Assembly (NCBI GenBank): GCA_041394745.1
Contig: JAWKHP010000014.1
Span: 21,562-85,561, forward strand
DNA length: 64,000 nucleotides
Direction of reading: 5' to 3'
From: Thermoanaerobaculia bacterium
GTDB lineage: Bacteria > Acidobacteriota > Thermoanaerobaculia > Multivoradales > JAHEKO01
Position 1 is the stretch's first letter; each line of letters begins with the position of its first letter. Under the pieces are notes generated by a model that was not told the origin of the DNA, searched no databases, and saw only the letters and a program-made list of their open reading frames with translations. The position numbers and the translations under genes were made by a program. Shown one piece after another: positions 1,531 through 31,367 of the stretch.

Positions 1531-2526
1531 GTCACACCGCCGACGGTGACCAACGTCGACAGCATCCTGGGCACCGACGGCTCGATCGACGAGTGCGACA
1601 GCGTGCGCACGACCGTGGCCGCCCTGCTGGTCACCTTCAGCGAGTCGATGTACGACCCCGGCGACCCGATGGACCCCAACGCGGTGACCAATCCCGACAA
1701 CTGGATGCTCGTCGGCGCCGGGCCGGATCACGACCTGTCGACGCTCCAGTGCGGTCCGCTCATGGGAGACGACGTGGCGACGGCGTTCGGCGCCATCTCC
1801 TGGAACCCCGGCTCGCTGACCGCGACCCTCGTCGCCGCCGGACCGGGCCCGGTGGCCGACGCGCCGTACCGGTTGATGGCCTGCAGCGGCGGCCTGGTCG
1901 ACGACGGCGGCGCCAATCCGCTCGACGGCGACGGCGACGGGACGGGAGGCGACGACTTCGTGCGTGGCTTCCGCATCGATCGCTTCGACGCGCTCGACGA
2001 CGGTCACTTCGACTGCGATCTCGACGCCTGGACCGTCGACACCCCGCCGGGAACCGAGATCCTCTTCTCGAGCGACGACGTCGACGACGCCGGGATCTCC
2101 GGCTCGGTGGCCTTCACCGCCCAGCTGCCGGCGATCTCGGCGACGCTCGCCCAGTGCGCGCCGATCCTGCCGGAGTCGATCTACCACCTCAGCGGCTTCG
2201 TCCGGCTCGATTCCTCGCAGCCCCGCCGCTTCCTGACAGCGTGCGACACGTTCGCGTCGATGGACTGCTCGGGCTCGCCGCTGTTCACGACGCAGTCCGA
2301 GGTGTTGGTCGGCGCACCGGGGGCGTGGACGCCGTTCACGGCCGATTCGGTGCTGATGCCGGGCGTGCACTCGGCGCTCTGCCGGGGGACCGTGCTGCCC
2401 GGCAACGAGGCGCCGTACTCGGTGCACCTGGACGACGTCTCGTTCGACGCCGTCTTCACGCAGATCCTCTTCCAGGACGGCTTCGAGTCCGGCGACACCT
2501 CGGCGTGGACGACGACGACGCCGTGA
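1..2526 (+). CDS. Secreted cell-surface repeat protein, 5'-truncated at the window edge. Ig-like/DUF11-like repeats, then Ig-like and CBM-like regions, then a C-terminal GFESGD tag.
   Basis: Frame 1 is open from nt 1, and the repeat unit already starts there (VVPGGTVTLELTLENV...); the track Met at 100 is internal. Four units of about 130 aa share GGTVTLxLTLxN, GLPMMDVCGMGSSLTG and SCTFSVTL motifs. The protein ends ILFQDGFESGDTSAWTTTTP, with stop TGA at 2524-2526. Confidence 0.85.
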   Translation, partial: VVPGGTVTLELTLENVSPVADATAIAFSDDLAPVLSGLTATGLPMMDVCGMGSSLTGASGNTRIVFGGGSLPSGASCTFSVTLQVPMAATSGIYDNATSNVSATMGGVPNLLFPPATDALTVSSDLLSATKSFTDDPAAPGGTVTLELTLTNLHPSLDVTGIALTDDLNAVVPGLAAVGLPMMDVCGMGSSLTGTSVISLTGGTLAPLSSCTFSVTLAVPASVPLGASFLNTTSTVTGSLAGLGVTGQPATDTLFIDSVELSKAFAGPVAAGGTVTLTFTLDNLDAANGIAQLSFTDDLDAVLPGLVAVGLPASNVCGAGSSLTGTSFLTLTDGSLAAGGSCSFPVQLQVPAAATPGSYPNVTSEVFSGGLSVGSAATDTLSVEPPPTFAKAFAPSAILAGDVSTLTFTIDNSASALAASALSFTDNLPAGLVVATPNGASTTCTGGTIGATPGSGVVSYSGGSVGAGASCTVQADVTGTTAGDYLNVSGDLTSSSGNSGTASDTLTILDVTPPTVTNVDSILGTDGSIDECDSVRTTVAALLVTFSESMYDPGDPMDPNAVTNPDNWMLVGAGPDHDLSTLQCGPLMGDDVATAFGAISWNPGSLTATLVAAGPGPVADAPYRLMACSGGLVDDGGANPLDGDGDGTGGDDFVRGFRIDRFDALDDGHFDCDLDAWTVDTPPGTEILFSSDDVDDAGISGSVAFTAQLPAISATLAQCAPILPESIYHLSGFVRLDSSQPRRFLTACDTFASMDCSGSPLFTTQSEVLVGAPGAWTPFTADSVLMPGVHSALCRGTVLPGNEAPYSVHLDDVSFDAVFTQILFQDGFESGDTSAWTTTTP
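2464..2523 (+). other. C-terminal tag copy 1 (ILFQDGFESGDTSAWTTTTP).
   Basis: Last 20 codons of CDS 1..2526. Shares the 20-nt core gacggcttcgagtccggcga with the tags at 22967-23026 and 31305-31364. Confidence 0.6.
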
Positions 2527-2545
2527 CCGAAGCTCGTCGAGCGGC

Positions 2546-3568
2546 TCAGAGCATCTCGGTGTAGCGGGCGAGGTCCGGCGTACCGAAGGTCGGTACGCCG
2601 GGCATCGCCGGCCGGGGCCGCGACAAGTCGACCGGAGCGCGGACCCCGTGACGGGCCGGCAACCGCGGCACGCGATCCCTGCCCAGGCACCGGCGCACGC
2701 CGGCGGGCGTGCCGAGGTCGCTCCATCCGACGCCTGGAAGGGGCAGGACGGCGAGCCGGTCCGCGCGGGACGCGAAGACGTCCGCGGAAAGATCCAGCCG
2801 GGGCATCCTCTCGAAGGCCGCGGCGAGCCTCGCGGCATCGGGCGCGGCATCCGCGAAGAGCGGCCGCAGGAGGGCGCCGGAGGGAGCTCCTTCGAGCAGC
2901 CGCTGGAAGGCGCCGAGACCGGCGACCGGGACGAAGCAGTTGACCAGCGCTCCCCGTTCGAGGAGCCCGCGGGCCCGCTCGGGGGAGGGCTTCTCGTGGA
3001 ACTCCTCGACCGGAAGCAGCACGGCGTCGCGGTCGGGCGCGCCGGGCACGATCCAGCCCAGCGAGGGATCCGGCCGCTCACCCGCCACGGCCAGGAGCAC
3101 CAGGACCTCCGGTGTTCGCTCGACCTCGCCGAACGCGGTCTCCACACCGCGCGCGAAGAGGTCTTCCCGCGCCATGTAGTGATCCGCCGGAAGGGCCGCG
3201 ATCACCGCACCGGGATCCCGCTTCGCGATCGAAAAGAGGGCCAGATGGAGGCCGACTCCGGTGCCGCGGTCCGCCGGCTGGACGAGGACGTTGGACGAGG
3301 GCAGGTCGGCCAGCTCGCGCGACCACCACGAGCGGTGGTCGCGCTGCACGACGACGACGATGCGGTCTCCCGGCACCAGCCGCTCGGCCCGCGCCAGGGC
3401 CATCTGCAGCAGGGACCGCTCGCCCCGGAGGGCGCAGTACTGCTTGGGACCCCGGGAGCCGCGCGCGTCCGTGGTCATCGCCTCCAGACGCCGCCCGGCG
3501 CCCCCGGCCAGCACGACGACCCAGCGCCTGGCGCCGCCGTCTGGATCCGAGCGCTCCGTCCTCGTCAT
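2546..3568 (-). CDS. Sugar-phosphate nucleotidyltransferase (mannose-1-phosphate guanylyltransferase-like).
   Basis: C-terminal 340 aa of ORF 2546..4246, starting MTRTERS (ATG at 3568). Carries the N-terminal VVLAGGAGRRL nucleotide-binding motif and a GTG...PADH core. The upstream part of the track ORF is low-complexity read-through antisense to the YihY gene. Confidence 0.8.
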   Translation of the reverse strand: MTRTERSDPDGGARRWVVVLAGGAGRRLEAMTTDARGSRGPKQYCALRGERSLLQMALARAERLVPGDRIVVVVQRDHRSWWSRELADLPSSNVLVQPADRGTGVGLHLALFSIAKRDPGAVIAALPADHYMAREDLFARGVETAFGEVERTPEVLVLLAVAGERPDPSLGWIVPGAPDRDAVLLPVEEFHEKPSPERARGLLERGALVNCFVPVAGLGAFQRLLEGAPSGALLRPLFADAAPDAARLAAAFERMPRLDLSADVFASRADRLAVLPLPGVGWSDLGTPAGVRRCLGRDRVPRLPARHGVRAPVDLSRPRPAMPGVPTFGTPDLARYTEML

Positions 3569-3697
3569 CGCCCCACTCCTCCGGCCGACCTGCCGCCGAC
3601 CGGAGGACAGTCTGCCGCGCAGAGCCGTTCCTGTCGCCACCCCTCCGGGTGAGACGCGGGCCAACCCCCACCGGGCGAGATGAGAGACTGAGCGTCG

Positions 3698-4642
3698 ATG
3701 CTCCGCCTCGGTCGCTGGAAGCAGACCTGGTCCCTGCACGGCCACTCGCCGTCGGCTTTCGCCCGCCGGGTCGGCTCGGCCGCCGGCGACGACGAGCTCC
3801 TGCGGCGCGCACCGGAGCTCGCGTTCTACCTCGTTCTGGCGATCTTCCCCTTCCTCTTCTTCCTCTCCGCCGGTCTCGGCTACCTGCTGGAGGGCAGCCG
3901 CCTGCTCGAGGGCACGATCTACGACTCCCTCCGCCGTTTCGGCCCCGGCAGCGAGGTCGCGGACCTGCTGCGAGGCATCCTCGACGAGGTGCGCGACACG
4001 AAGAGCGGGCAGACGCTCGCCGTGGGTCTGGTGAGCTCCCTGTGGGTCGCCTCGATGGGGATGCAGGCGCTGATCCAGGGGCTGAGCGCCGCCTTCGACG
4101 TTCGCGAGAGCCGGCCTTGGTGGCGGCAGCGGCTGGTCGCGATCGCGCTGACCGCCGTCTTCACCATCCTGGTCACGGCCGGCACGGCCGCCGTGATCTT
4201 CGGCGAGGTCGCGGCCGAGATCTTCGCGCGACCGCTGGCTCGCCATCCCGTGGTCGCCGCGGTCGGAACCACGGGACGCTGGATCGCCGGCATCGTCGTC
4301 GCCGTCCTCGCCCTCGACCTGCTCTACAACTTCGCCCCCGCGGTGGCGGAGAGACGGCGACGCTGGCTCACTCCCGGAGCCGTCACCGCGCTGGCGCTCT
4401 GGCTGGCCGCGTCGTGGGGCTTCCGCTGGTACGTCTCGAGCTTCCCCGCCTGGGGCCGCTTCTACGGTTCCCTCGGCACCGTGGTGGTGCTGCTGATGTG
4501 GTGCTTCTTCACCGCCGCGGCGCTGCTGCTGGGCGCCGAGGTCAACTCCGAGCTCGCCGGGATGGCGCGGGAATCAGCCGGCCAGGAGCCGCCAGACCTG
4601 AGCGACGACGAAACAGACCGCGAAGCCGAGAGCCAGGGGTAG
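3698..4642 (+). CDS. YihY/BrkB family membrane protein.
   Basis: ORF 3698..4642. Multiple TM segments and the [17 protein letters not shown] and GAEVNSEL motifs typical of the family. Confidence 0.85.
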
Positions 4643-7814: not shown

Positions 7815-7897
7815 GACGCCCGCGGCGATGAGGAGGGAGAGCGCTGGATCGATCCTGTCGGTGTCTCGGCCCGAGGTTGTTCTCGGGCCCCAAAACG

Positions 7898-7919
7898 GGA
7901 TTTATAGTACTCAAAATCC
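7898..7919. promoter_or_regulatory. AT-rich imperfect palindrome; candidate metalloregulator operator upstream of the DtxR-FeoA/feoB operon.
   Basis: GGATTTATAGTACTCAAAATCC is self-complementary at 18 of 22 positions. It lies ~85-105 nt upstream of the GTG at 7814, in the most AT-rich patch of this stretch. Confidence 0.35.
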
Positions 7920-7966
7920 GAGCGGGGCGCAAGCCCCCGGGGGAGAGGGCGCGGCCCCCGCCGGCC

Positions 7967-12325: not shown

Positions 12326-12826
12326 GTGACCGAGGCCGAGAAGGGAGCCCGATTCGCTCGGCTGGTGCGGGAGAACCGGCGCCGGCTGGCGGGAATCGCC
12401 GGCAGCTACGCCCGCGGGGAGGAGGTCGAGGACCTCACCCAGGAGATCCTGCTGCAGCTGTGGCGCAGCCTCGACTCGTTCGCCGGGCGTTCGAGCGAGG
12501 CGACCTGGCTCTACCGGGTGGCCCTGAACACGGCACTCGGTTGGCGCCGGCGGCGCTCCCGTCGGAGTCGGTTCGAGGTGGCGGTCGACGGCGGGGAGCT
12601 CGCCGCATCGTCACGCTCCGCCGCGACGGGGGGCGAGCGGGAGCTGACGATCCTGCGCCGCTTCCTGGCGAGCCTGTCGCCGGAGGATCGCGCCCTCTTC
12701 CTGCTCTACCTCGACGACCTGACCTACCGGGAGATGGCGGAGATCACCGGTCTCTCGGAGAGCCACGTCGGCGTCAAGCTGCACCGGATGAAGCAGGCCT
12801 TCGTCGAACGGAACATCGGGAGCTGA
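12326..12826 (+). CDS. ECF-type RNA polymerase sigma-70 family factor.
   Basis: ORF 12326..12826 with a GTG start. Region 2 (DLTQEILLQLW, WLYRVALN) and region 4 (LTYREMAEITGLSESHVGVKLHRMK). Confidence 0.9.
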   Translation: MTEAEKGARFARLVRENRRRLAGIAGSYARGEEVEDLTQEILLQLWRSLDSFAGRSSEATWLYRVALNTALGWRRRRSRRSRFEVAVDGGELAASSRSAATGGERELTILRRFLASLSPEDRALFLLYLDDLTYREMAEITGLSESHVGVKLHRMKQAFVERNIGS

Positions 12827-12830
12827 GCTC

Positions 12831-13499
12831 ATGGACATCGAACGGTTCCGCAGCGCCTGGCGCGATCAGCCCGTCCCGGCGCACCTGATCGAGGAGGACG
12901 ACGACATGATCGAGAGTCTCGAGCGACGGATGAAGCTCTTCCACCGCAAGATCGTCTTCCGCGACGCCGTGGAGACACTCGCCGCCCTCTTCGTCGTGGC
13001 CGTCTTCGCCTGGGTGTCGCGGCAGAGCGGCAGCGGGCTGGCCTGGGCCGGCACCGTCGTCGCGGCGGCCGCGGCAGCGGGCATCGCCATACGGCTCGGC
13101 CGCGCCCGTCGCGCCGAGGCGGGATCGGCGGCCCACGACCTGCGGAGCCGGCTGCACGGAGAGATCGACGCCGTGGAGCGCCAGATCCACCTGCTGCGCA
13201 CCGTGGCCCGGTGGTACGTGCTGCCCCTCATGCTCGGGGGCTTCCTCTGGAGCGTCGGGCTCATCCTGGCGGCCACCGAGGAGATCGGGATCCACTCGAC
13301 GCCGGCGGCGCTCGTCGCCGTCGCGGTGGTCGCCCTCTGGCTGAGCGCGGTGGGCTGGCTGGTCTGGCGCGTCAACCGCAAGGCCGCGCGCGACCACCTC
13401 GAGCCCCTGCGCAGCGGGTTGCTCGACAGCCTCCGCCGGCTCGAGGCCGGCGGCGACGATCAGTCGACGCGCAGCGCCGGGTCGCCGAGCAGCCCGTAG
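12831..13499 (+). CDS. Membrane protein, putative cognate anti-sigma factor.
   Basis: ORF 12831..13499 starts 5 nt after the sigma stop. It has several TM segments. The role is assigned by position only. Confidence 0.6.
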   Translation: MDIERFRSAWRDQPVPAHLIEEDDDMIESLERRMKLFHRKIVFRDAVETLAALFVVAVFAWVSRQSGSGLAWAGTVVAAAAAAGIAIRLGRARRAEAGSAAHDLRSRLHGEIDAVERQIHLLRTVARWYVLPLMLGGFLWSVGLILAATEEIGIHSTPAALVAVAVVALWLSAVGWLVWRVNRKAARDHLEPLRSGLLDSLRRLEAGGDDQSTRSAGSPSSP

Positions 13500-16400
13500 A
13501 CGCGCGCCAGCCGGCCGTCGCCTCCCGCCGCCGCGAAGCCCTCCAGCGCCGAGAGCCAAGCGTCGCCCAGCCGTTCGTTCTCGTCGAGAGCGTCGAAGAG
13601 CAGCCGGTTGAGCACGTGCGCCTGTCCCGAAGCCGAGACGCCGCTCGGCGCGAGGACGGCGACGCCGCCACCGCCAGGCTCGAGCACGAGCGCCTCGCCG
13701 AGCGACTCGAAGGCGGGCAGCTCGAAGCGGCCGATGACGCAGGTCCACGCCGAGACGATCGGCGGTGCGCCGACGGGGCCCAGCGCGGGAACGTCGGCCG
13801 CGGTCAGGAGGGGCTCCGCCGCCCACCGGTCGACGCCGCCGTGGCCGACCCAGTTGACCAGGAACGGGGACGCGGACCACGCGTCGAAGAGAGCCTCGCG
13901 CGCCTCGTCCACCGGAGAGCGGGCGAGGTCGATCGACTGCACATCGAGAGTCGCCGGCAGGTGGCCCGCCGCGGCCGTGCTCTGGGTCGGAAAGTCCCCG
14001 GCCCCGTCCGGATCGTCCGCCACGGCCAGGGCGAAGCCGCCCGGCCCCGCCCCCGCGCTCTCGAACGCCTGCAGCTTCGCGACGTAGGCATTCAGCTCCG
14101 CCGCGTCGCGGACCGGCAGGCGCCCGACGGCCACGCGGACCGGTCCCTCCTCCGGCTCGACGAGCAGGGAATCGGCCGCCGCCAGCCCGTGGGCGGTGCC
14201 GAGCAGGACCGGCGTGAGCCGGTTCTTCCCGTATCCGAGCAGGTCGCGCGGGTCGAGGCTGCCGGCACCGGCCAGCACGAGGTAGCGCGGCGCGACGCTC
14301 CAGCTCTCGCTCGCCCAGCGGACGAAGTCGCGGATCGCCCAGGGGTCCGGACGCCCGCCGCGGAACCGGTCGTAGATCTCTCGCACGTCGACGGCCAGGG
14401 CGGTCAGGCCCGTGCTCTCACGGTACGCCGCCAGCGCCTCGGCCGCGGGGAGCATGTCCGCCGTGGTGAGGACGACGTACTCGGCGCCCGGCGTCGTGTC
14501 GATGCGGGCCGCGCCGACCGGCTCGACCCGGGACGGAGCGAGCAGCGCGTCGCGCTCGACGACCACGTAGACGGTGCCCGGTGCGCGGGGGTTGAAGGTC
14601 AGGCGGTGCTCACCGGCCGCGGCGTCCACCGCCGCGTCGTGCATGAAGAGCGGGCGCGCCGGGTCGGTGACGTCGAAGGCCAGGACGTCGGAGGAGGCGA
14701 AGTGCTCCACCGTGATCTGCTCGCCGCCCTCCGCCGCCAGCTCGAGCGCACCGGCCTCGGCGCGGTAGGCGCGCGAGTAGTCGAGGGCGAAGCCGTCGAG
14801 GTAGAACATCGAGAGCCGTTCCGGCGCGTCGTCCAGAGCCTCGACGGTGACGGTCGTGGACGCGCCCAGCAGGCTCGCGTCGACCGGGAAAGTGGCCTCG
14901 TGGCGCTCGAGATCGGCCCACTCGGTCACTCCGACCTCGACGCCTCCGACCAGGACGCGCGCCGCGTGGTCCAGGTCGGCGGGGCCGACCACCGCGCCCG
15001 TCGCGCGGATCGTCAGCTGCGCGGTACCGCCGGGAACGACGTCGGGCGTGTCGAGCGCGAACGTGTGGCTGCCGAGCTCGGGATCCCCCGCCGCGAAGCC
15101 CTGCCAGTACCAGTGGTCGACGTCGGTCTCCCGCGTGGCGGCCGTCGCGGGGAAGACGTCCTCCTCGAAGTCGACGTGCGACGTGAAGTCGCCGCCGGGG
15201 CTCGGAGCGCCCGGCCGGCTCGTCCACCGGCCCATGGCGAGGCCGGGCGCGGCGAGGTCGATCTGCAGCACGTCCTGCGCCGTGTACAGGCTGTCGATCC
15301 CGGGCACGAAGACCAGCGCCTCCGATCCGTCGTCGGCGGCGAGGTACGGGACCTCCTCCCCGCCGCGCCGGATCGAGAGCTCGTAGGAGGCGAGGCGCTC
15401 TTCCATCGCGGCCGACGGGACCCCCGCGGCGGCGGCGAGCTCGGCGGCACCGAGCCGCACGACGCCGCGTCCCGCCACGCTCACGTCCAGCGCGTTCACC
15501 GAGGCCGGGGCACCGGCCCTCGCAGGATTCCGACCGGCGGACACGCCCGCTCCCGGTGCCGTGCGTGCCCGGCGGATCGGGAGGGCGGCGTCGACGGCTC
15601 CGGCCTCGGAACGGACGGTGAAGGGCCCGTGGATCCGGCGCTTGCCGGAGGACTCCACCTCGACCAACCGGTAGTCGATCGCCCCACGGCCCGGCGCCTG
15701 CGCGTCGAGCACGCGGTAGACGCCGCCCTGCGGCGCGTCGGCCAGCGCCGCCAACGGCCGCCCGACCGCCCGCCACTCTCCCCGCTCCCGCCGCTCCACC
15801 GAGAAGGCGACCGTCCCCGCCTCCGAGGTCGTCTCCCACTCGAGCAGCAGCCCCTCCGGCGTGCGCGAGCCCCGCATCCCGGAGACCAGGGCGACGGTGG
15901 GGGCGCAGGTCGAGAAGGTGAAGGAGCCGATGCGGGTGCCCCAGCGGCCCGGACGGTCCCCGTGTCCCTGCTGTACTCGCCGAGATACCAGAAAGTGGTC
16001 CCGTCCGGAGCGATGGTCATGCCCGTGTAGTCGCCCCAGCGGCGGGGGCTCGGATCGAACGCGAAGTATCGATCCACGCCCGCCTGCAGCGTGGTCTCGG
16101 TTCCCACGGTGCCCGGCGGATCGTGAACAGCCGGCCGTTGACGAAGGCTCCCGGAAGGTCGACGTGCTGCTGCGCGAGTACCCGATGGCCATGTCGCCGC
16201 AGTCGTTGACCGCCAGGCTGGGGAAGAACCGGTACTGACCCGAGCTGGCGAAGACGCCCGCCTGCACGACCGTGGCGCTCCGCCGCCCGACGGAGCCGGG
16301 TCGATCTCCGCCCAGCGGACGCAGTCGACGGTGCCGCCCCCGGGGTTGCACCGATGGTCTGGGCCGTCCAGAGGTGGCCGTTGCGGTACTCGGTCTGGTG

Positions 16401-17567
16401 GCCGCGCCAGTCGTTGGCCTGCATGAGCCCCGGCTGCGACTGCGGCACGTTGACCGGGAAGCTCGGCGCGACGCCGCTCGCCGCCTCGAGGTTCACCGTC
16501 CCCGTTGACGAAGACGTTCGCGCCGAAGGGGTCGCTCCACGACCACACCGTGTGGTGCGCCCCGTCGAAGACCTCCGTCATGAGGTAGTGCGGCTGCCGG
16601 GCGGCGGCCACGTGCCGGTCAGGTAGCCGTGCAGGTTCGCCGGCTGCGGCGTGCCGTCGCCCCGGCCGAGACGATCCGTCCGACGACCGTCGTAGCGCTG
16701 CCGGTCAGAGCGGTGCCTTCTCGATCGCCCAGGCGCGGGAATCGAAGAAGGCGTTGGTCGAGTTGCGAACATGTTGGCGCCGAAGAAGAGGGCCTCGTCG
16801 CCGACGCCCAGGTGAGGGAAGTCGAAGAACAGCGCGGCGCTGCCCGTGGTGACTGAGTAGATGGTCCAGGTCGCGGTCAACGGGTCGTTGATCGAGGGCA
16901 CGGCGAAGCAGTAGCGCAGTGCCGTTCGAGTCGATCCCGAGGACGAAGCGGCCCGTCTCCTCGTCGTAGACGGCGTTGGGATCGAAGAGGCCGGTGCAGT
17001 TGGGGTTCACGCCCATGAAGCTCGAGAAGGCAACGGGCCCGGTGAGCGACGTGCCGCTCTTGTCGTAGATCTCGAACGAGGTGTTGACGACGGCGATGAC
17101 GTGGTCGGGACCGGCGGCGAGCTCGGGGTCGGGCGGCACGCTGCCGGACAGATTGTCGGTGTAGTCGAGGCTGTCGAAGGAGACGCCGGGCGTCGGAGCG
17201 AGCAGACCCTCCGGCGAGAGGATCTGGATGTCCGGGTCGAAGGGCGCGCGCAGGGCGAGGCGCCGCAGCGTTCCGCTTCCTCCGGAGGGATCGGCATGCG
17301 GATGGCGATTCGGTCTCCGGCTCGATCGGCAGCTCCGCCCGGGCGAGCGCTTCACTCGGGCGATGACGTCCGCCAGTCGCACCTGGTAGCCCTTGCGATC
17401 CTGGAACTTCGGGGCTCCGCGCTCGGCCGCTCCGACGGAGGCGGCGCGTCCTGGAAGAGGGGCGCCGAAGCCCCGACGCCGCCGGCGTCGTGGTGAACCG
17501 GCACGCACGCCGTGAGGAGCGCCGCGAACGACGCGGACAAGACGACAGACGGGAACCTCGGGGCCAT
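13460..17567 (-). pseudogene. Giant lipoprotein: sialidase-like beta-propeller fused to a peptidase C25 (gingipain-like) domain, frameshifted in the N-terminal third.
   Basis: ATG at 17567 follows GAGGGAG and gives MAPRFPSVVLSASFAALLTAC (lipobox). N-terminal fragments are spread over ORFs 17352..17615, 16705..17508, 16578..16901, 16017..16496 and 15496..16611 (WGDYTGMTIAPDGTTFWYLGEY). ORF 13460..16351 carries the C25-like part, with NWVGHGG (His) and SAWTCVIGRF (Cys). Confidence 0.8.
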
Positions 17568-20405: not shown

Positions 20406-23029
20406 GTGAACACGAGGACGGCGTGGATCTTGGCCGCGGTGCTGGCCGCTCCGATGGCCGGATCGGTCCGGGCTGTGGAAGGCGGCGCGGAGCATGCGAT
20501 TCTCGAAGGGCTATGGCGAACGCAGGAGGAGATCGTCCTGCGCTCTCGGCACTACCAGGGCGCAGAGGCCGAAGCCGAGGCATTCACCACCGCAGTGCGC
20601 AGCCACCTGCGGGCGATCCGCCGCGAGACGCGCCGGCAGGGAGCGCGTGCCCGCTCCGCGCTCGGGCGCAAGATCGCGGCCGTCGAAACCCTCCTCCGAG
20701 CCGGCGGCGCGAGCGAGGGCGAGCTCCCCTCTCCTCGTCCGCTACCAGGCCGCCCTTCCAGCCAGATCGTCCCGTCGGCCGGCTGCGAGGGGGCGCCCGC
20801 CATGGAGCCCGGCACCGTCGAGTGGTTCGAAGGTACCTGGACACCAGATCCGGGGCGCGTCCACTTCGATCGCGACGCGTGGGTGCGTTTCGACGCCCGT
20901 GCGACCGGCCGCCTCGTGGTCCACACCGGAGGTTCCCACGCCGACACGGAGATCGCCGTCTTCGAACGGTGCGGCGCTCGGCCGGTGGCCGAGAACGACG
21001 ACGCGGTTGGACTGCAGAGTGTCGTCGGGCTCGATGCCGTGGCCGGACGCAGCTACAGGATCCGCGTCCGCACCCTCGTCGGACATCCGACGGACCCGGT
21101 GCGGCTGACGGTCGGACCGAGCGGTGGGATCAGTGGGACGGTCGTGACGGAAGACGAAGGAGAGCCGGTCGTCGGCATCCGCGTCAGCGCCTACGACGCG
21201 AACGGAAGCCTCGAGAGCACCGCCTTTACCTCGACCGATGGTTCCTACACGATCGACGGGCTGGATGACGGCGCCCTCTTCGTGCGGACCCGCTTCGCTT
21301 CGCCATTCCTCGACGAGCTCTGGGACGATCATCCCTGCTCACCGGACTGCGACGAAACCGAGGGGGATCAAGTCTCGGTGAAGAGCGGCGCCGTGACAGC
21401 CGGGGTCGACTTCGCGCTTCCCCTCGGCGGGTCGTTGACCGGAAGGATCCGTGATGCCGCCACGGGGCTGCCCCTCGCCTCCTACGACGTCGAGATCTAC
21501 TCCGCAACGGGAGAACAACTGGACTTCAGCGGCACGGACGAAGCCGGTCGCTACCGGGTGGAGGGGTTGGCGAGCGGCACCGTTCGCGCGGCGACCGGCG
21601 ACTCGGGCCCGTATCGCGACGAGCTCTACGACAACCTGCCCTGCGAGCCCGACTGCGATCCGACGACCGGAACGCCGATCATCATCCAACAAGGCCTGAC
21701 GACCTCGGAGATCGACTTCGATCTCGAGCTCGGAGGAGTGATCTCGGGACAGGCGGTCGCTTCCGGCACGGGCTCCGGCATCGCGTTTGCGCAGCTCACC
21801 ATCACCGACCAAGCGGGCCAGTACCTGGACGACCAGACCGCCGACGCTTCGGGGTACTACTCGTTCGGGGGCCTCGACGACGGCAACTACCGGATCTACA
21901 CGTCGGACTCGCGGTTCCGCAACGAAGTGTGGGATGACGTGCCCTGCCCGACGATCGACTGTGATCCCCTCACGGGCGACCTCGTTTCCGCGACCGTCGG
22001 ACAGACTACCGGCGGCATCGACTTTGCCCTCGACCCCTTGGGGGGGATCGCGGGCACGGTGGGCGCAACCGGTGCGGGCGTACCCACGGGGTTCGTCGAC
22101 ATCTTCACGGGCGGCGGGTTCCCCACCGAAGGCGCGGACCTCGACGCACTCGGCCGCTGGGCGGTTCCGTACCTGTTTCCTGGCGACTACAGGGCTGCAA
22201 CGCAGGTCGAGGCGCCGTACCTGGACGAGCTCTACGACGATTTCCCGTGTCCGACCGGTCCTCCCGACGGGTGCGATCCGATCGACGGTGATCCCATCTC
22301 CGTACCGCTCGGCGCCTTCGTGACGGGTATCGACTTCCTCTTGGACACCGGAGGCGCGATCACGGGAACGGTCCGGGACGCTTGGACGGGCGAGCCGGTG
22401 TTCTCAAGCGTCACGGCTTGGTCCGCCGACGACATCGTAGCGGGAGGCGCAACGACCGAAAGCGACGGTCACTTCCGCATCGAGCCGCTTCCCCGCCGGA
22501 AGCTTCTTCCTGACGACGAGCCAGTTCTCCCACTTCGATCAGCTCTATGACGGTTGCCCTGCGAGCCATCGTGCGATCCGACGACGGGAACGCCGGTGAC
22601 GGTGACTCTCGGTAAAACGACGTCCGGGATCGAGTTCGACCTGGTCCTCACGGGCGGACTGGAGGGCACGGTCACGGGAGCTCGGCAACCGCTGGTTGGA
22701 GTGGCCATCGACGTTTGGAGAGCAGACGGGCGGCTGGCGGCGACGACCGCAAGCAACCAGCAGGGGCGATTTCAAGTGACTTCGGTTCCGCGACCGTCTT
22801 CGTCTCGACCGACAACGGTCTGGGATTGACGGACGAGGTCTTTCGCGACCGGCTCTGTCCCGAGGGTCCAGCGATTCTCGGTCTCTGCGATCCCCTGGTG
22901 GGGACGCCCGTGGTCGTCAACGCCGGCGCCATCCCGGTATCCGGAATCGACTTCGCCCTGGAGGGCCTTCTCTTCGCCGACGGCTTCGAGTCCGGCGATG
23001 CGAGCGCCTGGTCCACGGTCGTTCCCTAG
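20406..23029 (+). pseudogene. Secreted CarboxypepD_reg-like repeat protein with a C-terminal GFESGD tag; three frameshifts near the 3' end.
   Basis: GTG at 20406 follows GAAAGGAAAGAG. Signal peptide VNTRTAWILAAVLAAPMAGSVRA. About 8 repeats of GG.I.G.V...G.Y...GL..G.Y then ELYD..PC.P.CDPTTGTP. The reading continues through ORFs 22554..22829 and 22715..23029, with frame changes at ~22490, ~22550 and ~22775. Confidence 0.8.
22967..23026 (+). other. C-terminal tag copy 2 (LLFADGFESGDASAWSTVVP).
   Basis: Last 20 codons before TAG at 23027-23029. Confidence 0.6.
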
Positions 23030-23087
23030 GGCCGGGCGCTGGCACGGCGCCTGCAGATCTTTCCGACGTCTGCGTCAGGAGGACGTC

Positions 23088-23564: not shown

Positions 23565-23565
23565 G

Positions 23566-26500
23566 TCAGCTGAGGAGCATCTTGAGGTCGTCGGCGGTGA
23601 GCTCGCCGAGGCCGCTGCCCTCGCCGCCCTCGAGGATGGTCTCCGCCAGCTGCTTCTTCGAGCGCTGCAGGTCGAGGATCTTCTCCTCGACGGTGTCGCG
23701 GGCGATCATGCGGTAGGCGAAGACCGGCTGGGTCTGGCCGATGCGGTGGGCGCGGTCGATGGCCTGGGCCTCGACGGCGGGGTTCCACCACGGGTCGAGC
23801 AGGAAGACGTAGTCGGCGGCCGTCAGGTTGAGCCCGGTGCCGCCCGCCTTGAGGCTGACCAGGAAGAGCTTGCACTCCGGATCGGTCTGGAACCGCTCGA
23901 CCGGGGCCGCGCGATCGCGGGTCTGGCCGTCCAGATAGGCGTAGGGCAAGCCGCGCTGCTCGAGGTCTTCGCGCACGTAGGCCAGCAGGCTGGTGAACTG
24001 CGAGAAGACGAGGACCTTGTGGCCCTCGTCGAGCACCTCGTCGACCTGCTCGAAGAGGGCCTCGAGCTTGGCGCTGCCCGCCCGCCGCCACTCGTCCTTG
24101 ACGAGACCCGGGTGACAGGCCACCTGCCGCAGCCGCAGGAGCGCCTCGAGCACCTGCATCGTCGAGCCCGCGACACCCTTCGAGCTCACCTGGTCGAGCA
24201 GGCTCGCCTGGTACTCGGCGCGCAGGGCATCGTAGAGCTCCCGCTGCTCCGGCCGCAGCGAGCAGAACAGGACCTGCTCGGTTTTCGGCGGCAGGTCGGC
24301 CAGCACCTCGCTCTTGGTGCGGCGCAGGATGAAGGGACGCAGGCCGCGCGCCACCAACGCGAGCTGCTCGCGGGTCGGCGTCCCACCGCTGACCAGCACG
24401 TCGAGCCGCGGCATCCGGCCCAGCAGGCCGGGGTTCAGGAACTCGAACAGGGAGCCGAGCTCGCCGAGGTGGTTCTCGATCGGCGTGCCGGTGAGGGCCA
24501 GCCGGTGGCGCCCGGTGAGCAGACGGCTCGCCTTGGCCGTCTGGGAGTCCGGGTTCTTGATCGCCTGTGCCTCGTCGAGGACGACGCTGTCGAACTCGAC
24601 GGTCGAGAGGAAGCCGATGTCGCGCCGTAGGGTGCCGTAGGTGGTCACCACCAGGTCGTAGTCGCCGAGCTTCCCTTGCAGCTGCTCGCGGTCGCTGCCG
24701 TGGTACTCGACGACCTTCAGCTTCGGTGTGAAGCGGCCCGCCTCGTCGACCCAGTTGTAGACCAGGCTGCGCGGCGCCACCACCAGAGACGGCAGCCCGG
24801 TGCTCTTCGACGGCGTCCGGTGGGCGTGCAGGTGAGCCAGCACCTGCACCGTCTTGCCGAGCCCCATGTCGTCGGCGAGCACGCCGCCGAGGCCGAACTC
24901 ACGCAGGAACGACAGCCAGCCGAGGCCCTGACGCTGGTAGCCGCGCAGCGTGCCCTTGAACCCGCGGGCCTCCTTGATCGGCTCGACCCGCTCGAAGGAG
25001 GAGAGCTTCTCGCGCAGCTCGGCGAACGCCTTGTCGACCTGCGCCGGCGGCATCGCGGCGAGCAGGGCGTCGACCAGCGCCGCCTGCGAGGTCAGGAACC
25101 GCAGGCCGTCCTCGGTCTCCTCCTGGGCCAGCTCCGACAGCGAGCCGTAGGTCTCCATCCATGCCTCCGGCAGCACGCCCTGCGAGCCGTCCTCGAGCTC
25201 GATGAAGCGTTCGCCCTTGGAGACGGCGGCGAGGAGCCGGCGCATCTCGACGCGGTCGCCCGCGAAGTCCACGTCGCCGGAAACCTCGAACCAATCGATA
25301 CCGCTTTCCACCTTGAGGGCCGGCGGGTTGGGCCGGCGCAGGGAGGCACCGTGCACCTCCACCGACCATCCTTCCGACAGCAGGGCCTCGGCGACGTCGG
25401 GCAGCTCGGCCGGGCGCAGCTGCAGACCGTGGTCCTGCGACCCCTCGACGGGCCGCAAGCCGAGCTCCACCAGCCGCACGACCGACTCGCGCTCCCGGTC
25501 GATGTCGCGACGGGCGTAGCGGCCCTCCTCCCAGTCGACGATCGCCGGTCGCAGGTCCTCGGCGTTCACCTCCAGCTCGCCGTAGAGGAAGGTGAGCCGG
25601 GCGAGCAGCGGCGCGCTGTTCCAACCGGAGACCGGCAGCGGCTCGAGCACCAGCCGGGGCTGCGGTTCCGAGGGCTCCTGCTCGAGGTCCATGTCGTCGG
25701 GCGCCTCGAGCTCGGGAAGCTCGGGCAGCTCGAGCAGCGACACCAGCGCCTCGTCGAGCTCGCCGTTGGGAATGCGGACCTCGCCGTTCTCGATCAGCAT
25801 CTCCAGCCAGGGCAGGTCGCGCTCGCGGGTCAGGTCGAGCGGCGCCAGGGTCTTCGAGACCAGCAGGAGCCCGGTCGGGTCGTCGGCACCGTTGCGCGCG
25901 CCCGGCAGGATGAGTGCCGGATCGGTGAGCGCCACGCTCTCGTCGTCACGCTCGAAGACGCCGGTCAGCCGGGCGGAACCCCCGGCGACGCGCTCGAGGC
26001 GCAAGGCCAGCCGCCACGGCGAGCCGTCGTCCCAGGCCACTCGCGGAGGGCTGCCGGGGAGCGCCCGTCCCACCAGCTGAGCGTTCCCTCGTCGCACAGG
26101 TGCGGCAGGACGAGGTCGTAGAGATCGGGCGGCAGCTGGAACCGGCGCACGCCCCGGGACGACCGCCCGCGCGGGCGCCGGCCCTGCGCGACGCCGGCTC
26201 GGGCAGGAGGGCCGGGATGACGGCGAGATCGACCTGCAGCTCGTCGTCGTCCTCCTCCACCGGCAGCAGGATCGACTCCAGGTCCTCGGGTTCGATCGAG
26301 GTGGGCTTGGGCCTTCCGCCCCGGCCGCGTCCGCCGCTGAACACGTCGAGGACGAGCGAGTCGTCGCTGGCGGCCGTGTTGATCAGCAGCTGGACGTCGA
26401 GCGAGGACTCGTGCGACGAATCGGCCGACCGCGCCAGGGCGTCGCGTACCGTCTCGAACCGCGACCTCCAGCTGTCGACTTCACCGCGCCGCGCGCCGCG

Positions 26501-26989: not shown

Positions 26990-27242
26990 CGTTCTCCACT
27001 TCTCTTGCGGGCTCGTCGCCGAGCGCCGCGTCCCTCCGGCCTCGCAATCCGCGACGGCCCCTCCTGGCTACCGCCGGCGGCTCCTCCCCACGAGGACGCT
27101 CACGGCTCGCAGCGGGGCGGCACGACCGTCTCGGGGCGGCTCGGCTCGAGAGTCCACTCGAACGAGAGCAGCGCGGCAACTGCCGGCTCCCGCTGAGCGC
27201 CTAGCATAAACGCTTCGGCTCTCGAGCGGAAGTCGCTCGTGG

Positions 27243-27803: not shown

Positions 27804-28777
27804 GGGTTCTCCTCTACCAGGTTGGAGGCGAGTCGGGCGGCGTCGATGTTACCGCCCGACACGACGCAGACGGTCGGCCCGACACCGGCCGCTCCCGCCA
27901 GGGCCGCGGCGACCGGCGCCGCTCCGGCGCCCTCGGCCACCACGCGCTGGCGCTCGACGAGCAGACGGACGGCCTGCGCCACCGCGGCCGGATCCACCAC
28001 GGTGCTGCCGGCCAGCAGGGTCGAGGCCAGGGGCCACATCTCCTCGAGCACGCTCCGGCCTCCGATGCCGTCGACGAAGCTGGGCCGGTAGTCGATCGTC
28101 ACCGGCCCGCCCGCCGAGAGCGAGGCCGCCAGCGGCGCCGCGCTGGAGACCTCGACGGCGAAGACCCGCGCCCGGGGCGCGACCGCGGCGAGCGCCGAGG
28201 CGATGCCGCAGGAGAGGCCGCCTCCGCCGTAGGGCACCAGGACCGTGCGCACCTCCGGAAGCTCCTCGGCGATCTCGAGGCCGATCGTGCCGTTGCCGGC
28301 CATCACCGCCGTGTCGGCCACCGGATGGACGAAGAGGCCGGGGAGGTCTCCCGGATCGTGCTCGATCAGACGGCGCCACCATTCGTCGAACGGGACGGAG
28401 ATCGTCTCGCCTCCCATCCGGCGGATCGCGTCGAGCTTCGTGCGCGGCGCGTGGTCGGGCACCAGAACCCGGCAGGGCACGCCGAGCCGACGAGCGCACC
28501 ACGCCACCCCTTGCGCCATGTTGCCGGCACTCGTGGTGACGACACCCCGGCGCAGCGTCCCGCCGTCGGCGAGCCCCATCGCGTTGCCCGCCCCGCGAAG
28601 CTTGAAGCTGCCGATCGGTTGCAGGTTCTCGAGCTTCAGCCAGACGGGGGCCGGCAGGTCGTCCACCGCGAGGGGGACCAGCGGCGTGCGCAGGGCCGTG
28701 CCCGCGAGCCGGTCGGCCGCGCCGCGGATCTGCTCGATCGACGGCGCCCGAACCGTACTGGGGCTCATCCGGGCCAT
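27800..28777 (-). CDS. PLP-dependent threonine dehydratase / serine racemase-like enzyme.
   Basis: ORF 27800..28777. Has the GSFKLRGAGNAM lysine motif and the fold-type II glycine loop PYGGGGL. Confidence 0.85.
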   Translation of the reverse strand: MARMSPSTVRAPSIEQIRGAADRLAGTALRTPLVPLAVDDLPAPVWLKLENLQPIGSFKLRGAGNAMGLADGGTLRRGVVTTSAGNMAQGVAWCARRLGVPCRVLVPDHAPRTKLDAIRRMGGETISVPFDEWWRRLIEHDPGDLPGLFVHPVADTAVMAGNGTIGLEIAEELPEVRTVLVPYGGGGLSCGIASALAAVAPRARVFAVEVSSAAPLAASLSAGGPVTIDYRPSFVDGIGGRSVLEEMWPLASTLLAGSTVVDPAAVAQAVRLLVERQRVVAEGAGAAPVAAALAGAAGVGPTVCVVSGGNIDAARLASNLVEENP

Positions 28778-29754
28778 TCCATCCTGCGGCCCACACCGAG
28801 CTCGTCGGCGCGCAGCCAGGCCCGGCGCGCGGCGGTCAGGTCCTCGATCGCCAGCCCGAGCGACTCGTAGAGGGTGATCTCGTCGGCGGCCGTGCGCCCG
28901 GCGGCTCTCCCCGCCACCACCTCGGCGAGCTCGGCGACGATGTCCCCGGCGTCGAAGGCACCGTTCGCCGCCGCCAGGAGGAGGTCGCCCGCCTCGGCCA
29001 GCGCCGACTCCCGGGAGTCGACGACGATCCGCGCGCGCCGGATCAGCCCGGCATCGACCTCACGCGCCCGGGGCGTGCACGAGCCCACCGCGTTGACGTG
29101 GCAGCCGGGAGCCAGCCAGGCGCCTTCGAGGATCGGCTGGGCCGATGCCGTCAGGGTACAGACCAGGTCGGCGCCCTCGACGGCCGCGCGAGCCGAGCCC
29201 ACGGGCTCGACGCGCAATCCCGCGGTCGAGCGCGCCCACAGCGCGAGCTCCGCGGCGCGCTCGGGAGTCCGGTTCCACACCCGCACGCGGCGCAGGGAAC
29301 GCACGGCGGCGATCGCCCGCAGGTGGGCGCGCGCCTGGACGCCCGCTCCCAACAAGGCCAGGTCGCCGGCGTCCTCGCGCGCCAGCTCGCGGGTGGCCAG
29401 TGCCGAGGCCGCCGCCGTGCGCCGCGCCGTCAGCTCGCCCGCCTCGAGGATGGCTTCCGGCCGGCCGGTGGCCCCGTCGAAGAGCAGCACCGCCCCCTGG
29501 TGGGAGTCGAGCCCCGCCGCGTGCGCACCGGGGAAGACGGTCACGACCTTCAACGCGAAGGTGGGAGGGTCGGCCAGGAACGCGGGCATCGAGCCCACCA
29601 GCCCGGCCCGGTCGGGGCGGAAGACGGCTTGGCGCAACGGGTTGACGACGTCGCCGCGCGCGAGCGCCTCGAAAGCCTCCTCGGCGGCCGCCAAGGCCTC
29701 ACGCTCGTCGAGCACCCGTCCGACGTCGGTCCGGTCCAGCCAGAGGATCGTCAC
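28765..29754 (-). CDS. Ornithine cyclodeaminase / mu-crystallin family protein.
   Basis: ORF 28765..29754. Rossmann LALLGAGVQARAHL and family-typical TARRTAAASALATR. Overlaps the downstream PLP gene by 13 nt. Confidence 0.85.
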   Translation of the reverse strand: MTILWLDRTDVGRVLDEREALAAAEEAFEALARGDVVNPLRQAVFRPDRAGLVGSMPAFLADPPTFALKVVTVFPGAHAAGLDSHQGAVLLFDGATGRPEAILEAGELTARRTAAASALATRELAREDAGDLALLGAGVQARAHLRAIAAVRSLRRVRVWNRTPERAAELALWARSTAGLRVEPVGSARAAVEGADLVCTLTASAQPILEGAWLAPGCHVNAVGSCTPRAREVDAGLIRRARIVVDSRESALAEAGDLLLAAANGAFDAGDIVAELAEVVAGRAAGRTAADEITLYESLGLAIEDLTAARRAWLRADELGVGRRMEWPG

Positions 29755-29903
29755 GCGCGGAGCTTACCCGCCGGACCCGCCGGCGGCAGCGGTCCGCTCC
29801 CGGCTCTCGGCTCCGTCGCGTGCGCCTCGACCCCACCGTCCCTCTTCGACCCACCGCGGCCCGAGGCGGTGCTACGCTGCCCGTCACCTGCGGAGGCACC
29901 TGC

Positions 29904-31367
29904 ATGCGGTCCACGATCCGAAGCCCGCACCGGTCGGCGGCGATCCTCATGGCCGGCCTCGCCTCGTGGTCGCTCCCCGGAGCGGCCCAGTGGTCCTCCG
30001 ATCCGGCGGCCAATCTGGTGCTCGCCGACCGCACGGGAGAGCAGGTGCAGCCGAAGGTCGTGCCGACGGCCGACGGCGGCGCCTACGTCTCCTGGTTCGA
30101 CAACGCGACGGGCGGCTACGACGTCACCCTGCAGCGGCTCGACGTCCAGGGCTTCGAGCAGTGGGCGCACGACGGCGTGCTGGTGGCCGACCGGAGCTTC
30201 AGCTCGACGCAGGACTACGGGCTCGCCGTCGACACCGGCGGCAACGCCCTGCTCGCCTACCGGGACGACTCGGGACCGAACGACCAGATCGCCGCCGCCA
30301 AGGTCGACCCCGACGGCACCCTGCTCTGGGGAGCGGGCGGCATCCAGGTGAGCGCGACGACCGGCTTCGTCGCGGCGCCGAAGATCGCCGGGACCTCGGA
30401 CGGCAACGTCGTCGTGGCTTGGACCCAGGACTCGAGCGTGATGGTCCAGCGACTGGACCCGGACGGCGCGCCGCTGTGGAGCCCGGCGGTCGAGATCGCC
30501 CCGTCGAGCGGCTCCTTCTCCCTGTCGGACCTGCACGCCGCCCCCGGCGGTGACGTCGTCCTCTCCTTCGTGCACCAGGTCAGCACGACTCGGCACTTGT
30601 GGGCGCAGAAGCTGGACGCCGACGGCGATCCCCTCTGGGGCGCCGGTCACGTCCAGGTCTACGACGGAGCGGGCTCCCTGCAGTTCGGCAACTTCCCGTC
30701 CTTCGTGCCGGACGGCTCCGGCGGGGCGGTCTTCTCCTGGTACATCACCTCGCCTCTGCAGGTCTTCGCCCAGCGCCTCCTGGCCAACGGCACCGAGGCC
30801 TTCGCGCACAACGGCGTCGCAGGCTCGACGGACGGCGTCCGGCTGCGCGCCTCCCCCACCGTGGCCTTCGATCCCGCAACGCAGGAGGCCTTCCTGTTCT
30901 GGGTGGAGACCGACTCCCTGCAGAGCCAGTTCGGCGTCTGGGGCCAGAAGCTCGACGCCGCCGGCGCGCGTCAGTGGACCGACAGCGGGCGGACCCTCGT
31001 GCCGCTCGGGGCGAGCCAGCCCAGCTTCGTCCAGGCGGCCACCCTCGGCGACGGCGCCGTCGCAGCCTGGATCGACGGCATCGCCTTCGGCAACGCCCCG
31101 ATCCGCGCCTCGCGCCGCGACGGCGCGGGCGACGCCGTCTGGGACCCCGACCCGGTCGCCCTCAAGACCTCGGCCACCGGCTCCTCCCGCCTCGCCGGTG
31201 CCACCAGCAGCGCCGGCTTCGGGATCTACGTCTGGTCCGACGGCACCAGCGACGGCGACATCCTGGCCCAGAACCTGAACCCCGACGGCAGCCTCGGTCC
31301 CGCGTTCCTGTTCACCGACGGCTTCGAGTCCGGCGACACCTCCGCCTGGACCACGGCCGTGCCCTGA
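29904..31367 (+). CDS. Secreted repeat (propeller-like) protein with a C-terminal GFESGD tag.
   Basis: ATG at 29904 within ORF 29820..31367. Signal peptide ...ASWSLPGAAQ. Recurrent DPDG.(L/P)LWG strands. Ends FLFTDGFESGDTSAWTTAVP. Confidence 0.8.
   Translation: MRSTIRSPHRSAAILMAGLASWSLPGAAQWSSDPAANLVLADRTGEQVQPKVVPTADGGAYVSWFDNATGGYDVTLQRLDVQGFEQWAHDGVLVADRSFSSTQDYGLAVDTGGNALLAYRDDSGPNDQIAAAKVDPDGTLLWGAGGIQVSATTGFVAAPKIAGTSDGNVVVAWTQDSSVMVQRLDPDGAPLWSPAVEIAPSSGSFSLSDLHAAPGGDVVLSFVHQVSTTRHLWAQKLDADGDPLWGAGHVQVYDGAGSLQFGNFPSFVPDGSGGAVFSWYITSPLQVFAQRLLANGTEAFAHNGVAGSTDGVRLRASPTVAFDPATQEAFLFWVETDSLQSQFGVWGQKLDAAGARQWTDSGRTLVPLGASQPSFVQAATLGDGAVAAWIDGIAFGNAPIRASRRDGAGDAVWDPDPVALKTSATGSSRLAGATSSAGFGIYVWSDGTSDGDILAQNLNPDGSLGPAFLFTDGFESGDTSAWTTAVP
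31305..31364 (+). other. C-terminal tag copy 3 (FLFTDGFESGDTSAWTTAVP).
   Basis: Last 20 codons before TGA at 31365-31367. Confidence 0.6.

Follow-up and report, generated by a model that had tools for sequence, protein, structure and literature searches.

Three proteins encoded in a 64,000-nucleotide stretch of a Thermoanaerobaculia bacterium assembly (GCA_041394745.1, contig JAWKHP010000014.1, positions 21,562 to 85,561 of the forward strand; hereafter, the window) end in nearly the same 20 residues, and this C-terminal tail, which we call the tag, recurs at the ends of unrelated proteins across related Acidobacteriota. Sequence comparisons make it probable, at roughly 0.6, that the tag is a lineage-specific C-terminal localization signal for Sec-exported proteins of Thermoanaerobaculia-type Acidobacteriota. 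The tag itself is real, widespread, and undescribed as far as the searched libraries show. A preliminary description of the window, made from its letters alone, had proposed a dedicated sorting, attachment, or processing signal, and that proposal is supported by the terminal position of the tag across the lineage, its occurrence several times per genome, the signal peptides of its carriers, the spread of those carriers over at least 71 Pfam families, and the exchange of the tag for other anchors in homologous proteins.

The three open reading frames (ORFs) lie on the forward strand and end in [LI]F-x-DGFESGD-x-SAW-x4-P, with the stop exactly 16 codons past the Asp that opens the DGFE motif in each. 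Their shared 20-nucleotide core, GACGGCTTCGAGTCCGGCGA, occurs exactly three times in the window (at 2476, 22979, and 31317, all on the forward strand) against a shuffle mean of 0.04 copies, and three or more copies arose in 0 of 100 shuffles, which confirms that the same tail is present on three proteins. No fourth copy was found in the window by a six-frame motif scan with a relaxed pattern. When 300 nucleotides around each copy were aligned, the likeness of the DNA ran only from the Leu-Phe codons to the stop codon, and synonymous codon differences were found among the copies within the tag. Given these bounds and the synonymous differences, the conserved feature is the peptide rather than a DNA element, and near-identical DNA is expected for identical peptides under the codon bias of a window with 72% G+C. 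Beyond the window, 57 identical copies of the peptide DGFESGDTSAW are encoded by 44 distinct DNA sequences. A repeated DNA element or gene conversion was rejected, since the likeness halts at the stop codon and since so many DNA versions encode the one peptide. The tag thus appears to be under selection at the protein level. The genes that lie 3′ of tags 1, 2, and 3 (2546-3559, 23566-26382, and 31392-32303) are each on the opposite strand and therefore convergent, which excludes read-through or recoding into a downstream domain and marks the tails as true C-termini. Upstream of the tag, Pfam, AlphaFold2, and Foldseek bear out the earlier observation of completely different architectures, with three unrelated bodies (Table 1).

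To see how far the tag extends, we wrote the pattern DGFE[ST]GD-x-[ST]AW as degenerate DNA and scanned one genome per GTDB species. This returned at least 117 loci, almost all of them in metagenome-assembled genomes (MAGs) labelled Thermoanaerobaculia, Holophagae, Candidatus Multivoradales (an order of Thermoanaerobaculia), or plain Acidobacteriota. Among the matches listed, a stop codon lies 11 to 19 residues past the Asp in 96 of the 105 from Acidobacteriota-labelled MAGs and in 0 of the 10 from Chloroflexota, Actinomycetota, and Archaea; the stop falls within this range in about 103 of all 127 matches listed and exactly 16 residues past the Asp in 71, while about 28 assemblies hold 2 to 7 of the listed loci each. 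The preliminary description had raised the prospect that the motif might prove internal in most homologues; among the Acidobacteriota matches listed it is instead mostly C-terminal. A relaxed pattern added 19 variant tags in the same loci (e.g., DDFESGD, DGFEAGD, NGFESGD, and DGYESGD), which indicates that tagged genes often cluster, as they do at loci L003, L045, and L084.

The tagged unit spans approximately 20 to 22 residues, [LIV]-F-x-D-G-F-E-[ST]-G-D-x-[ST]-A-W followed by 0 to 8 residues and usually ended by Pro, and a few extra C-terminal residues are tolerated. Within it, no variation was seen in D, G, F, E, G, D, or W, and conservation is 90% or higher at F(-2) and A(+9). Conservation extends to positions that the search pattern did not specify: of 64 distinct tags, 58 have L, I, or V at -3, 61 have F at -2, 46 have T at +7, 51 have S at +11, and 55 end in Pro. 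Orthologues of the third carrier that are 55 to 78% identical have a tail core about as conserved as the body (0.77 versus 0.72). A hidden Markov model (HMM) of the tail matched 5982 proteins at E ≤ 0.001 among 1.84 billion cluster representatives, a figure that takes in internal domain starts as well as terminal tags. The top of that list mixed single terminal matches with multi-copy internal ones, and about half of the checked top hits were terminal. A 40-column tail profile searched against proteins returned 60 matches, all of them short gene fragments.

Several side observations concern the ends of tagged genes. Tandem tag duplicates with a period of about 21 to 24 residues occur at the C-termini of P0135, P0149, P0157, P0199, P0185, and P0075, from which the tail appears to behave as a modular unit. 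A protein on the reverse strand of L077 ends in DGFETGDTSAWSTVIPALFGDGPLVNGMLLVLMVAGAAVMRLKER, where a hydrophobic helix and basic residues come immediately after the tag in a composite of two kinds of signal. Across L001 to L117 and the window, with crude gene calls, the stop codons after the tag were 48 TAG, 47 TGA, and 10 TAA, compared to 144 TAG, 324 TGA, and 49 TAA for other called ORFs in the same loci (Fisher p = 5e-4 for the overrepresentation of TAG), an excess that may reflect the sequence context set by the final Pro codon or else inaccurate gene calling. A few terminal tags were also found on contigs assigned to Deltaproteobacteria, Polyangiaceae, or Kangiella MAGs (L023, L082, L076, and L095), through either mis-binning or horizontal transfer.

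The carriers belong to many protein families. Pfam searches of 88 carriers returned 71 families, none of them in more than six members, including InhA-like MAM, BNR, FG-GAP, beta-helix, CarboxypepD_reg, DUF11, LVIVD, and the S8 and M14 peptidases, and BLAST clustering likewise scattered 93 carriers over many families. The NCBIfam names of carrier families record dependence on other anchors in other lineages: nine carriers each match the myxosortase-dependent and rhombosortase-dependent M36 families, and others match choice-of-anchor Q (eight carriers), J (four), B (three), and O (two), rhombotarget A (two), and the MYXO-CTERM protein MtsC (two). The carriers had been described as exported proteins, and a check for signal peptides agrees with this: by a simple heuristic, signal-peptide-like N-termini were found in 64 of 77 complete tagged ORFs and in 177 of 387 neighbouring ORFs (Fisher p = 7e-10), and the N-termini of many carriers are textbook Sec signals.

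What takes the place of the tag in other lineages can be followed in the well-conserved family of the third carrier (P0245), for which we found 1807 homologues. Among the top 120, which are 53 to 78% identical, 101 have the tag at their end, and about eight others have variant tags there. The junction at which tails are swapped in this family lies directly after ..AQNLNxDGSLG. At this junction P0322 has an IPTL-CTERM signal (TIGR04174; 24.7 bits versus a cut-off of 20.5), P0363 and P0364 have the type A sorting domain (TIGR04183; 31 and 24.1 bits versus a cut-off of 23) of the type IX secretion system (T9SS), P0360 has a tail composed of IPLL, a transmembrane segment, and RR, and P0355, from Phycisphaerae, has a weak dockerin-like tail. 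As judged from sequence, the tag fills a slot that is held by IPTL-CTERM, the T9SS C-terminal domain, MYXO-CTERM, or GlyGly-CTERM in homologues of other lineages. In L017 (5839-7170) the tail of a paralogue is tripartite (EVPALAPLG..., a transmembrane segment, and RRQR) and closes with a stop codon, and 11 codons on, in the same frame, stands an orphan tag, ATLADGFETGDTSAWPVTVP, with its own stop; this looks like an anchor replacement in which the old tag was left behind.

Structure predictions place the tail outside the fold of its carrier. AlphaFold2 models of carriers 1 and 3, built on alignments of 50 and 59 sequences, respectively, had a mean predicted local distance difference test score (pLDDT) of 89.9 with a predicted template modelling score (pTM) of 0.84 for carrier 1 and a mean pLDDT of 91.7 with a pTM of 0.88 for carrier 3. 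The body of carrier 1 scored above 90 and its tail approximately 50 to 63, while the tail of carrier 3 scored 40 to 48; in both models the tail is unpacked, and it is predicted as coil on jellyroll and propeller alike, even though its core is no less conserved than the body in the carrier 3 alignment. Taken together, the flexible length, the tolerated extensions, the tandem copies, and the unpacked models suggest a linear recognition module that is read in trans. By these features the tail behaves neither as a structural part of the carrier nor as a signal that needs a free carboxylate.

Outside Acidobacteriota, in matches from Chloroflexota, Actinomycetota, and Archaea, the same motif stands at the start of a domain of about 190 residues that is often repeated and often C-terminal in large secreted proteins, with weak Pfam matches to CBM_4_9 (PF02018, from profile position 2-4) and Polysacc_lyase (PF14099). 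A search of the window and the acidobacterial loci with an HMM of this domain without its first strand returned no match to the rest of the jellyroll. Accordingly, the earlier suggestion that the motif might be the first strand of an annotated domain stands outside the lineage, where the Pfam matches are weak, and falls within it, where the tag stays terminal. By its likeness, the tag appears to be the first hairpin of a CBM4/LamG-type jellyroll that in this lineage forms a free-standing terminal unit. The jellyroll of carrier 1 itself opens with LFANGHFDCDLxxW, which is paralogous to the tag with identical spacing. Of 57 proteins homologous to the C-terminal module of carrier 1, about 49 have the tag at their end.

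We can propose an outline of how such a signal might operate. Carriers would be exported by Sec and would fold in the periplasm with the tail left exposed, and the exposed tail would be recognized in trans by dedicated machinery for sorting to, or retention at, the cell surface. Because the tail has no membrane helix, the machinery that reads it cannot be an intramembrane sortase-type protease such as exosortase, rhombosortase, or myxosortase. Since the tail corresponds in sequence to the first jellyroll hairpin, our preferred mode of recognition is strand augmentation by a beta-hairpin, in which the tail might bind to a receptor or translocon component in a noncovalent docking that may depend on Ca2+. 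The main alternative would be cleavage and transfer by a soluble periplasmic or an outer-membrane peptidase.

Several points weigh against a localization signal of this kind. The heuristic behind the signal-peptide counts is crude, with a background rate of 46%, and a functionless tail would give a low pLDDT as well. Two of the eight properties on a published checklist for small C-terminal sorting signals (Haft et al., bioRxiv 10.1101/2023.06.07.544157), a transmembrane segment and a basic cluster, are missing from the tag. The strand-augmentation mode of recognition is purely inferential, and an HMM search for an acceptor jellyroll without its first strand found none in about 1 Mb of tag-bearing DNA. 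Finally, no partner emerged among 686 clustered ORFs from the at least 117 loci, and a secretion or processing system is absent from five annotated 20-kb contexts and from the whole window, so that the earlier remark that no obvious partner gene sits next to the tagged genes holds well beyond the three original carriers.

The neighbours that do recur are Ser/Thr kinase or TPR proteins (18 loci), ECF sigma factors (6 loci), and sulfatase-like genes. Ser/Thr kinase, TPR, or winged-helix regulators and ECF sigma factors are multi-copy families in Acidobacteriota; they also stand by tagged genes at 12326-13499 in the window and at L119:11669-14412. Sulfatase-like proteins, as judged from their sequences, lie near tagged genes in L034, L050, L055, L081, L094, and L113, and several share a C-terminal ...L(R/E)ALGY(L/I), which is clear in L055, L081, and L094 and near the end in L113. 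The window also encodes FeoAB, Lgt, a secreted aspartyl protease, an ECF sigma factor, a MacB-type permease, a SNF2 helicase, an ATP-binding cassette (ABC) exporter (33339-34727), a PMT_2/TPR protein, Sortilin/BNR proteins, and an S10 carboxypeptidase.

A more specific scheme, which we consider rather unlikely, is that the tag is one half of a naturally split jellyroll: each cargo would retain just the opening hairpin of an ancestral C-terminal CBM/LamG-type anchor domain, and the remainder would be encoded once, as a surface or outer-membrane receptor on which cargo would be docked by beta-strand complementation, possibly in a Ca2+-dependent manner. If true, this would amount to a cohesin-dockerin-like or SpyTag-like display of dozens of exo-enzymes and adhesins, of a kind not described in bacteria.

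Somewhat less probable still is a C-terminal pro-peptide or degron, in which the tail would be the site for a periplasmic C-terminal processing or tail-specific protease and would control maturation, activation, or turnover rather than location. The tail forms an exposed, flexible end to its protein, peptidases (S8, M36, M14, and trypsin-like), a class that often has removable extensions, are numerous among the carriers, and the window encodes both the secreted S10 carboxypeptidase and the secreted aspartyl protease. However, orthologues swap the tail for anchoring signals (IPTL-CTERM or a T9SS domain) and not for pro-peptides, many carriers are not enzymes (e.g., DUF11 adhesin-like repeat proteins and propellers), and the tolerance of extra C-terminal residues and tandem copies is a poor fit to recognition of a free C-terminus.

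We also think it quite unlikely that the tag is a structural element in cis, a hairpin that caps or completes the final domain of the carrier, for example as an additional edge strand or one half of a Ca2+ site, and plays no part in sorting. Such a role would agree with the use of the motif as the first strand of CBM4/LamG-type jellyrolls elsewhere, and with its position in carrier 1 and some others, where it follows a jellyroll whose last strand has the usual DD motif. Yet the folds that precede it are unrelated (propeller, CarboxypepD_reg, beta-helix, and subtilase), AlphaFold2 leaves it unpacked on jellyroll and propeller despite deep alignments, and orthologues function with other C-terminal signals in its place.

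The C25 cysteine peptidase encoded between the tagged genes of the window (C25 domain E = 2.5e-57) had been named as a speculative partner. As a member of the PorU family it might cleave the tail and attach cargo to a surface glycan, and the invariant Asp residues of the tag could be P1 sites for a clan CD peptidase; PorU, the sortase of T9SS, is a precedent for a sorting signal without a membrane helix. We found no support for this role and consider it very improbable, since no C25 domain was present in about 0.95 Mb flanking tagged genes in about 60 other MAGs, and since the seven relatives detectable in a species-genome scan of low sensitivity were from Thermoflexales, Deltaproteobacteria, Lentisphaerae, Bacteroidia, and Kapaibacterium and not from tag-bearing MAGs; the N-terminal half of the ORF is, moreover, repeatedly frameshifted. 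The N-terminal part of this ORF is homologous to the whole bodies of tagged proteins in L003 (3084-4652), L089 (4522-6252), and L040 (123-2396). After a shared terminal strand, SFTFSTC (SFTFPPC in L003), the window ORF runs into an Ig-like region and the C25 domain while the others end in the tag, and by this alignment the C25 module stands in place of the tag.

There is only a slim chance that the tag is an evolutionary relic, the functionless stub of a truncated C-terminal jellyroll spread by duplication of gene ends. In Chloroflexota and Actinomycetota a full jellyroll of about 190 residues with the same opening is the C-terminal domain of large secreted proteins, and the orphan copy past the stop codon in L017 indicates that relic tags exist. 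Relics would not be expected to have a stop position that is identical in 71 independent genes among the matches listed, a core about as well conserved as the body in orthologues 55 to 78% identical, a fixed peptide whose synonymous codons are free to vary, or a profile that matches 5982 cluster representatives at E ≤ 0.001, part of them internal domain starts.

Lastly, an uncleaved type I secretion signal read by an ABC transporter, a membrane-fusion protein, and a TolC-type exporter can practically be dismissed: although the tail is C-terminal and acidic and has no membrane helix, and although the ABC exporter and MacB-type permeases are encoded in the window and close to some of the tagged genes, N-terminal Sec signal peptides, which are absent from type I substrates, are present on most carriers, no RTX repeats were noticed, no conserved ABC, membrane-fusion, or TolC neighbours were found over the at least 117 loci, and MacB-type permeases are so highly multi-copy in Acidobacteria that their adjacency is expected by chance.

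The coordinates of the carriers, the tag copies, and the C25 ORF are collected in Table 1. The PPC-like domain of carrier 2 was assigned by eye, without a family match, and carrier 2 as assembled contains at least three frameshifts between about 22480 and 22800, within its last 700 nucleotides. Genes at 15880-17567, 38084-41329, and 45000-52500 are similarly frameshifted or have no clean third-position G+C signal, and no RNA genes were found in the 45- to 52-kb stretch. Fragmentation of the same kind is seen in related public contigs (e.g., L127), for which reason indels in long-read assemblies seem likelier than pseudogenes. A Sortilin/BNR gene appears to be split into 38084-39718 and 39794-41329, and this copy ends without a tag. 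Its homologues lie at or near tagged genes in L069, L031, and L116, with the match in L069 inside a tagged ORF.

Table 1. Tagged proteins, tag copies, and the C25 peptidase ORF in the window
Feature	Position	Strand	Description	Evidence
Carrier 1	1..2526	+	N-terminus cut by window edge; DUF7933/DUF11 repeats, Ig-like domain, CBM4/16/22-type jellyroll, tag	Pfam, AlphaFold2, Foldseek
Tag copy 1	2464-2523, stop codon 2524-2526	+	ILFQDGFESGDTSAWTTTTP	Core search, translation, motif scan
C25 peptidase ORF	13460..17567	-	Between tagged genes; catalytic domain C-terminal, N-terminal half frameshifted	C25 match, E = 2.5e-57
Carrier 2	20406..23029 (start approximate)	+	Signal peptide, PPC-like domain, CarboxypepD_reg/SdrD_B repeats, tag	Pfam
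Tag copy 2	22967-23026, stop codon 23027-23029	+	LLFADGFESGDASAWSTVVP	Core search, translation, motif scan
Carrier 3 (P0245, 487 aa)	29904..31367	+	Sec signal peptide, beta-propeller body, tag	AlphaFold2, homologue search
Tag copy 3	31305-31364, stop codon 31365-31367	+	FLFTDGFESGDTSAWTTAVP	Core search, translation, motif scan

Thermoanaerobaculia are a widespread, almost uncultured class of Acidobacteriota in soils and sediments, and the tag marks a large share of their predicted exoproteome, including peptidases, sialidase-like propellers, and adhesin-like repeat proteins. C-terminal sorting signals have repeatedly led to new machineries for secretion and attachment, among them sortase, exosortase, archaeosortase, rhombosortase, myxosortase, and T9SS, and the tag shows hallmarks of such signals in both its population genetics and its architecture. 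Since the tag has neither the membrane helix nor the basic tail needed by the intramembrane systems and is far too short for T9SS, its reader should work differently. A profile of the tag would improve annotation and localization prediction for Thermoanaerobaculia MAGs and would be a clean query for phylogenetic profiling, and a portable 20-residue tag for surface display or docking could serve as a tool.

Comparison with known systems sets the tag apart from each of them. The preliminary description had held that it resembles none of LPXTG, PEP-CTERM, GlyGly-CTERM, MYXO-CTERM, and the T9SS C-terminal domain and that no machinery has been described for it. Our searches agree on both counts, as the tag has no helix, no basic tail, and no HMM match: no Pfam or NCBIfam model matched it in searches with whole proteins, the 88 carriers, or tag-only 40-mers (E ≤ 10), a PDB sequence search with the tag gave no match, and a literature search returned nothing on the motif DGFESG and nothing relevant on sorting or secretion in Thermoanaerobaculia. 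The eight-item checklist introduced above includes a strongly hydrophobic segment that fits a transmembrane helix and a terminal basic cluster (items 4 and 5), along with signal peptides on most carriers, dissimilar carrier pairs, and homologues with no signal or another one (items 6 to 8) (bioRxiv 10.1101/2023.06.07.544157). The tag has six of the eight properties: it lies near the C-terminus, occurs several times per genome, contains an invariant motif, and is carried by unrelated proteins with signal peptides whose homologues bear other signals.

The tripartite signals (IPTL-CTERM, PEP-CTERM/exosortase, GlyGly-CTERM/rhombosortase, MYXO-CTERM/myxosortase, and LPXTG/sortase) share with the tag an extreme C-terminal position, many carriers per genome, an invariant motif, signal peptides, and unrelated passengers. 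They also share passenger families with it (choice-of-anchor proteins and M36 peptidases), and IPTL-CTERM is interchangeable with the tag in orthologues of the third carrier. Unlike them, the tag has no hydrophobic transmembrane segment and no Arg/Lys cluster and thus no hold on the inner membrane; no hydrophobic run follows the motif, and the tails end in S-x-[TV]-V-P, with the composite in L077 as the sole exception. This places the tag outside the tripartite class and beyond processing by an intramembrane sortase-type enzyme. IPTL-like tripartite tails are present in the tag-bearing MAG loci L106 and L074, a coexistence which indicates that the tag is a separate system rather than an IPTL-CTERM variant.

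T9SS is characteristic of Bacteroidota and, more widely, of the FCB group. Like the tag, its C-terminal domain (type A, TIGR04183/PF18962) has no membrane helix and is found on Sec-exported proteins of a diderm bacterium, both diverse degradative enzymes and adhesins; in contrast to the 20 residues of the tag, predicted to be flexible, it is a folded beta-sandwich with a model of about 72 to 75 positions. No T9SS-type Pfam match reached its threshold within the window, and the only match to Por_Secre_tail, in the repeat region of carrier 2 (residues 255-297), was subthreshold (E = 0.25, 11.4 bits versus a cut-off of 23). We rejected a T9SS domain because the tag is too short, lacks a significant HMM match, and has no predicted fold. 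An outer-membrane beta-signal was rejected as well, since the checked carriers are soluble multidomain proteins, the tail usually ends in Pro, and its pattern does not alternate.

Dockerins, which are pairs of 22-residue Ca2+-binding loop-helix repeats, resemble the tag in being short, acidic C-terminal modules on many exo-enzymes, and the tail of P0355 is weakly dockerin-like; in contrast to a dockerin, the tag bears no sequence or HMM likeness to that module, and no scaffold-type partner was identified. Donor-strand complementation, as in chaperone-usher and type V pili, and SpyTag/SpyCatcher offer a conceptual parallel only, in that the terminal beta-strand of a fold is supplied in trans; unlike in those systems, neither an acceptor domain lacking its first strand nor a covalent bond is in evidence for the tag. 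The likeness in sequence is to CBM4/9/16/22 and LamG-like jellyrolls, which contain ΦF-x-DGFESGD-x-SAW with identical spacing, although in the window and in Thermoanaerobaculia a stop codon takes the place of the remaining 170 or so residues. Altogether, we conclude that the tail is a new, non-tripartite, sorting-type tag, with an inferred mechanism, that derives from the first hairpin of a CBM4/LamG-like jellyroll.

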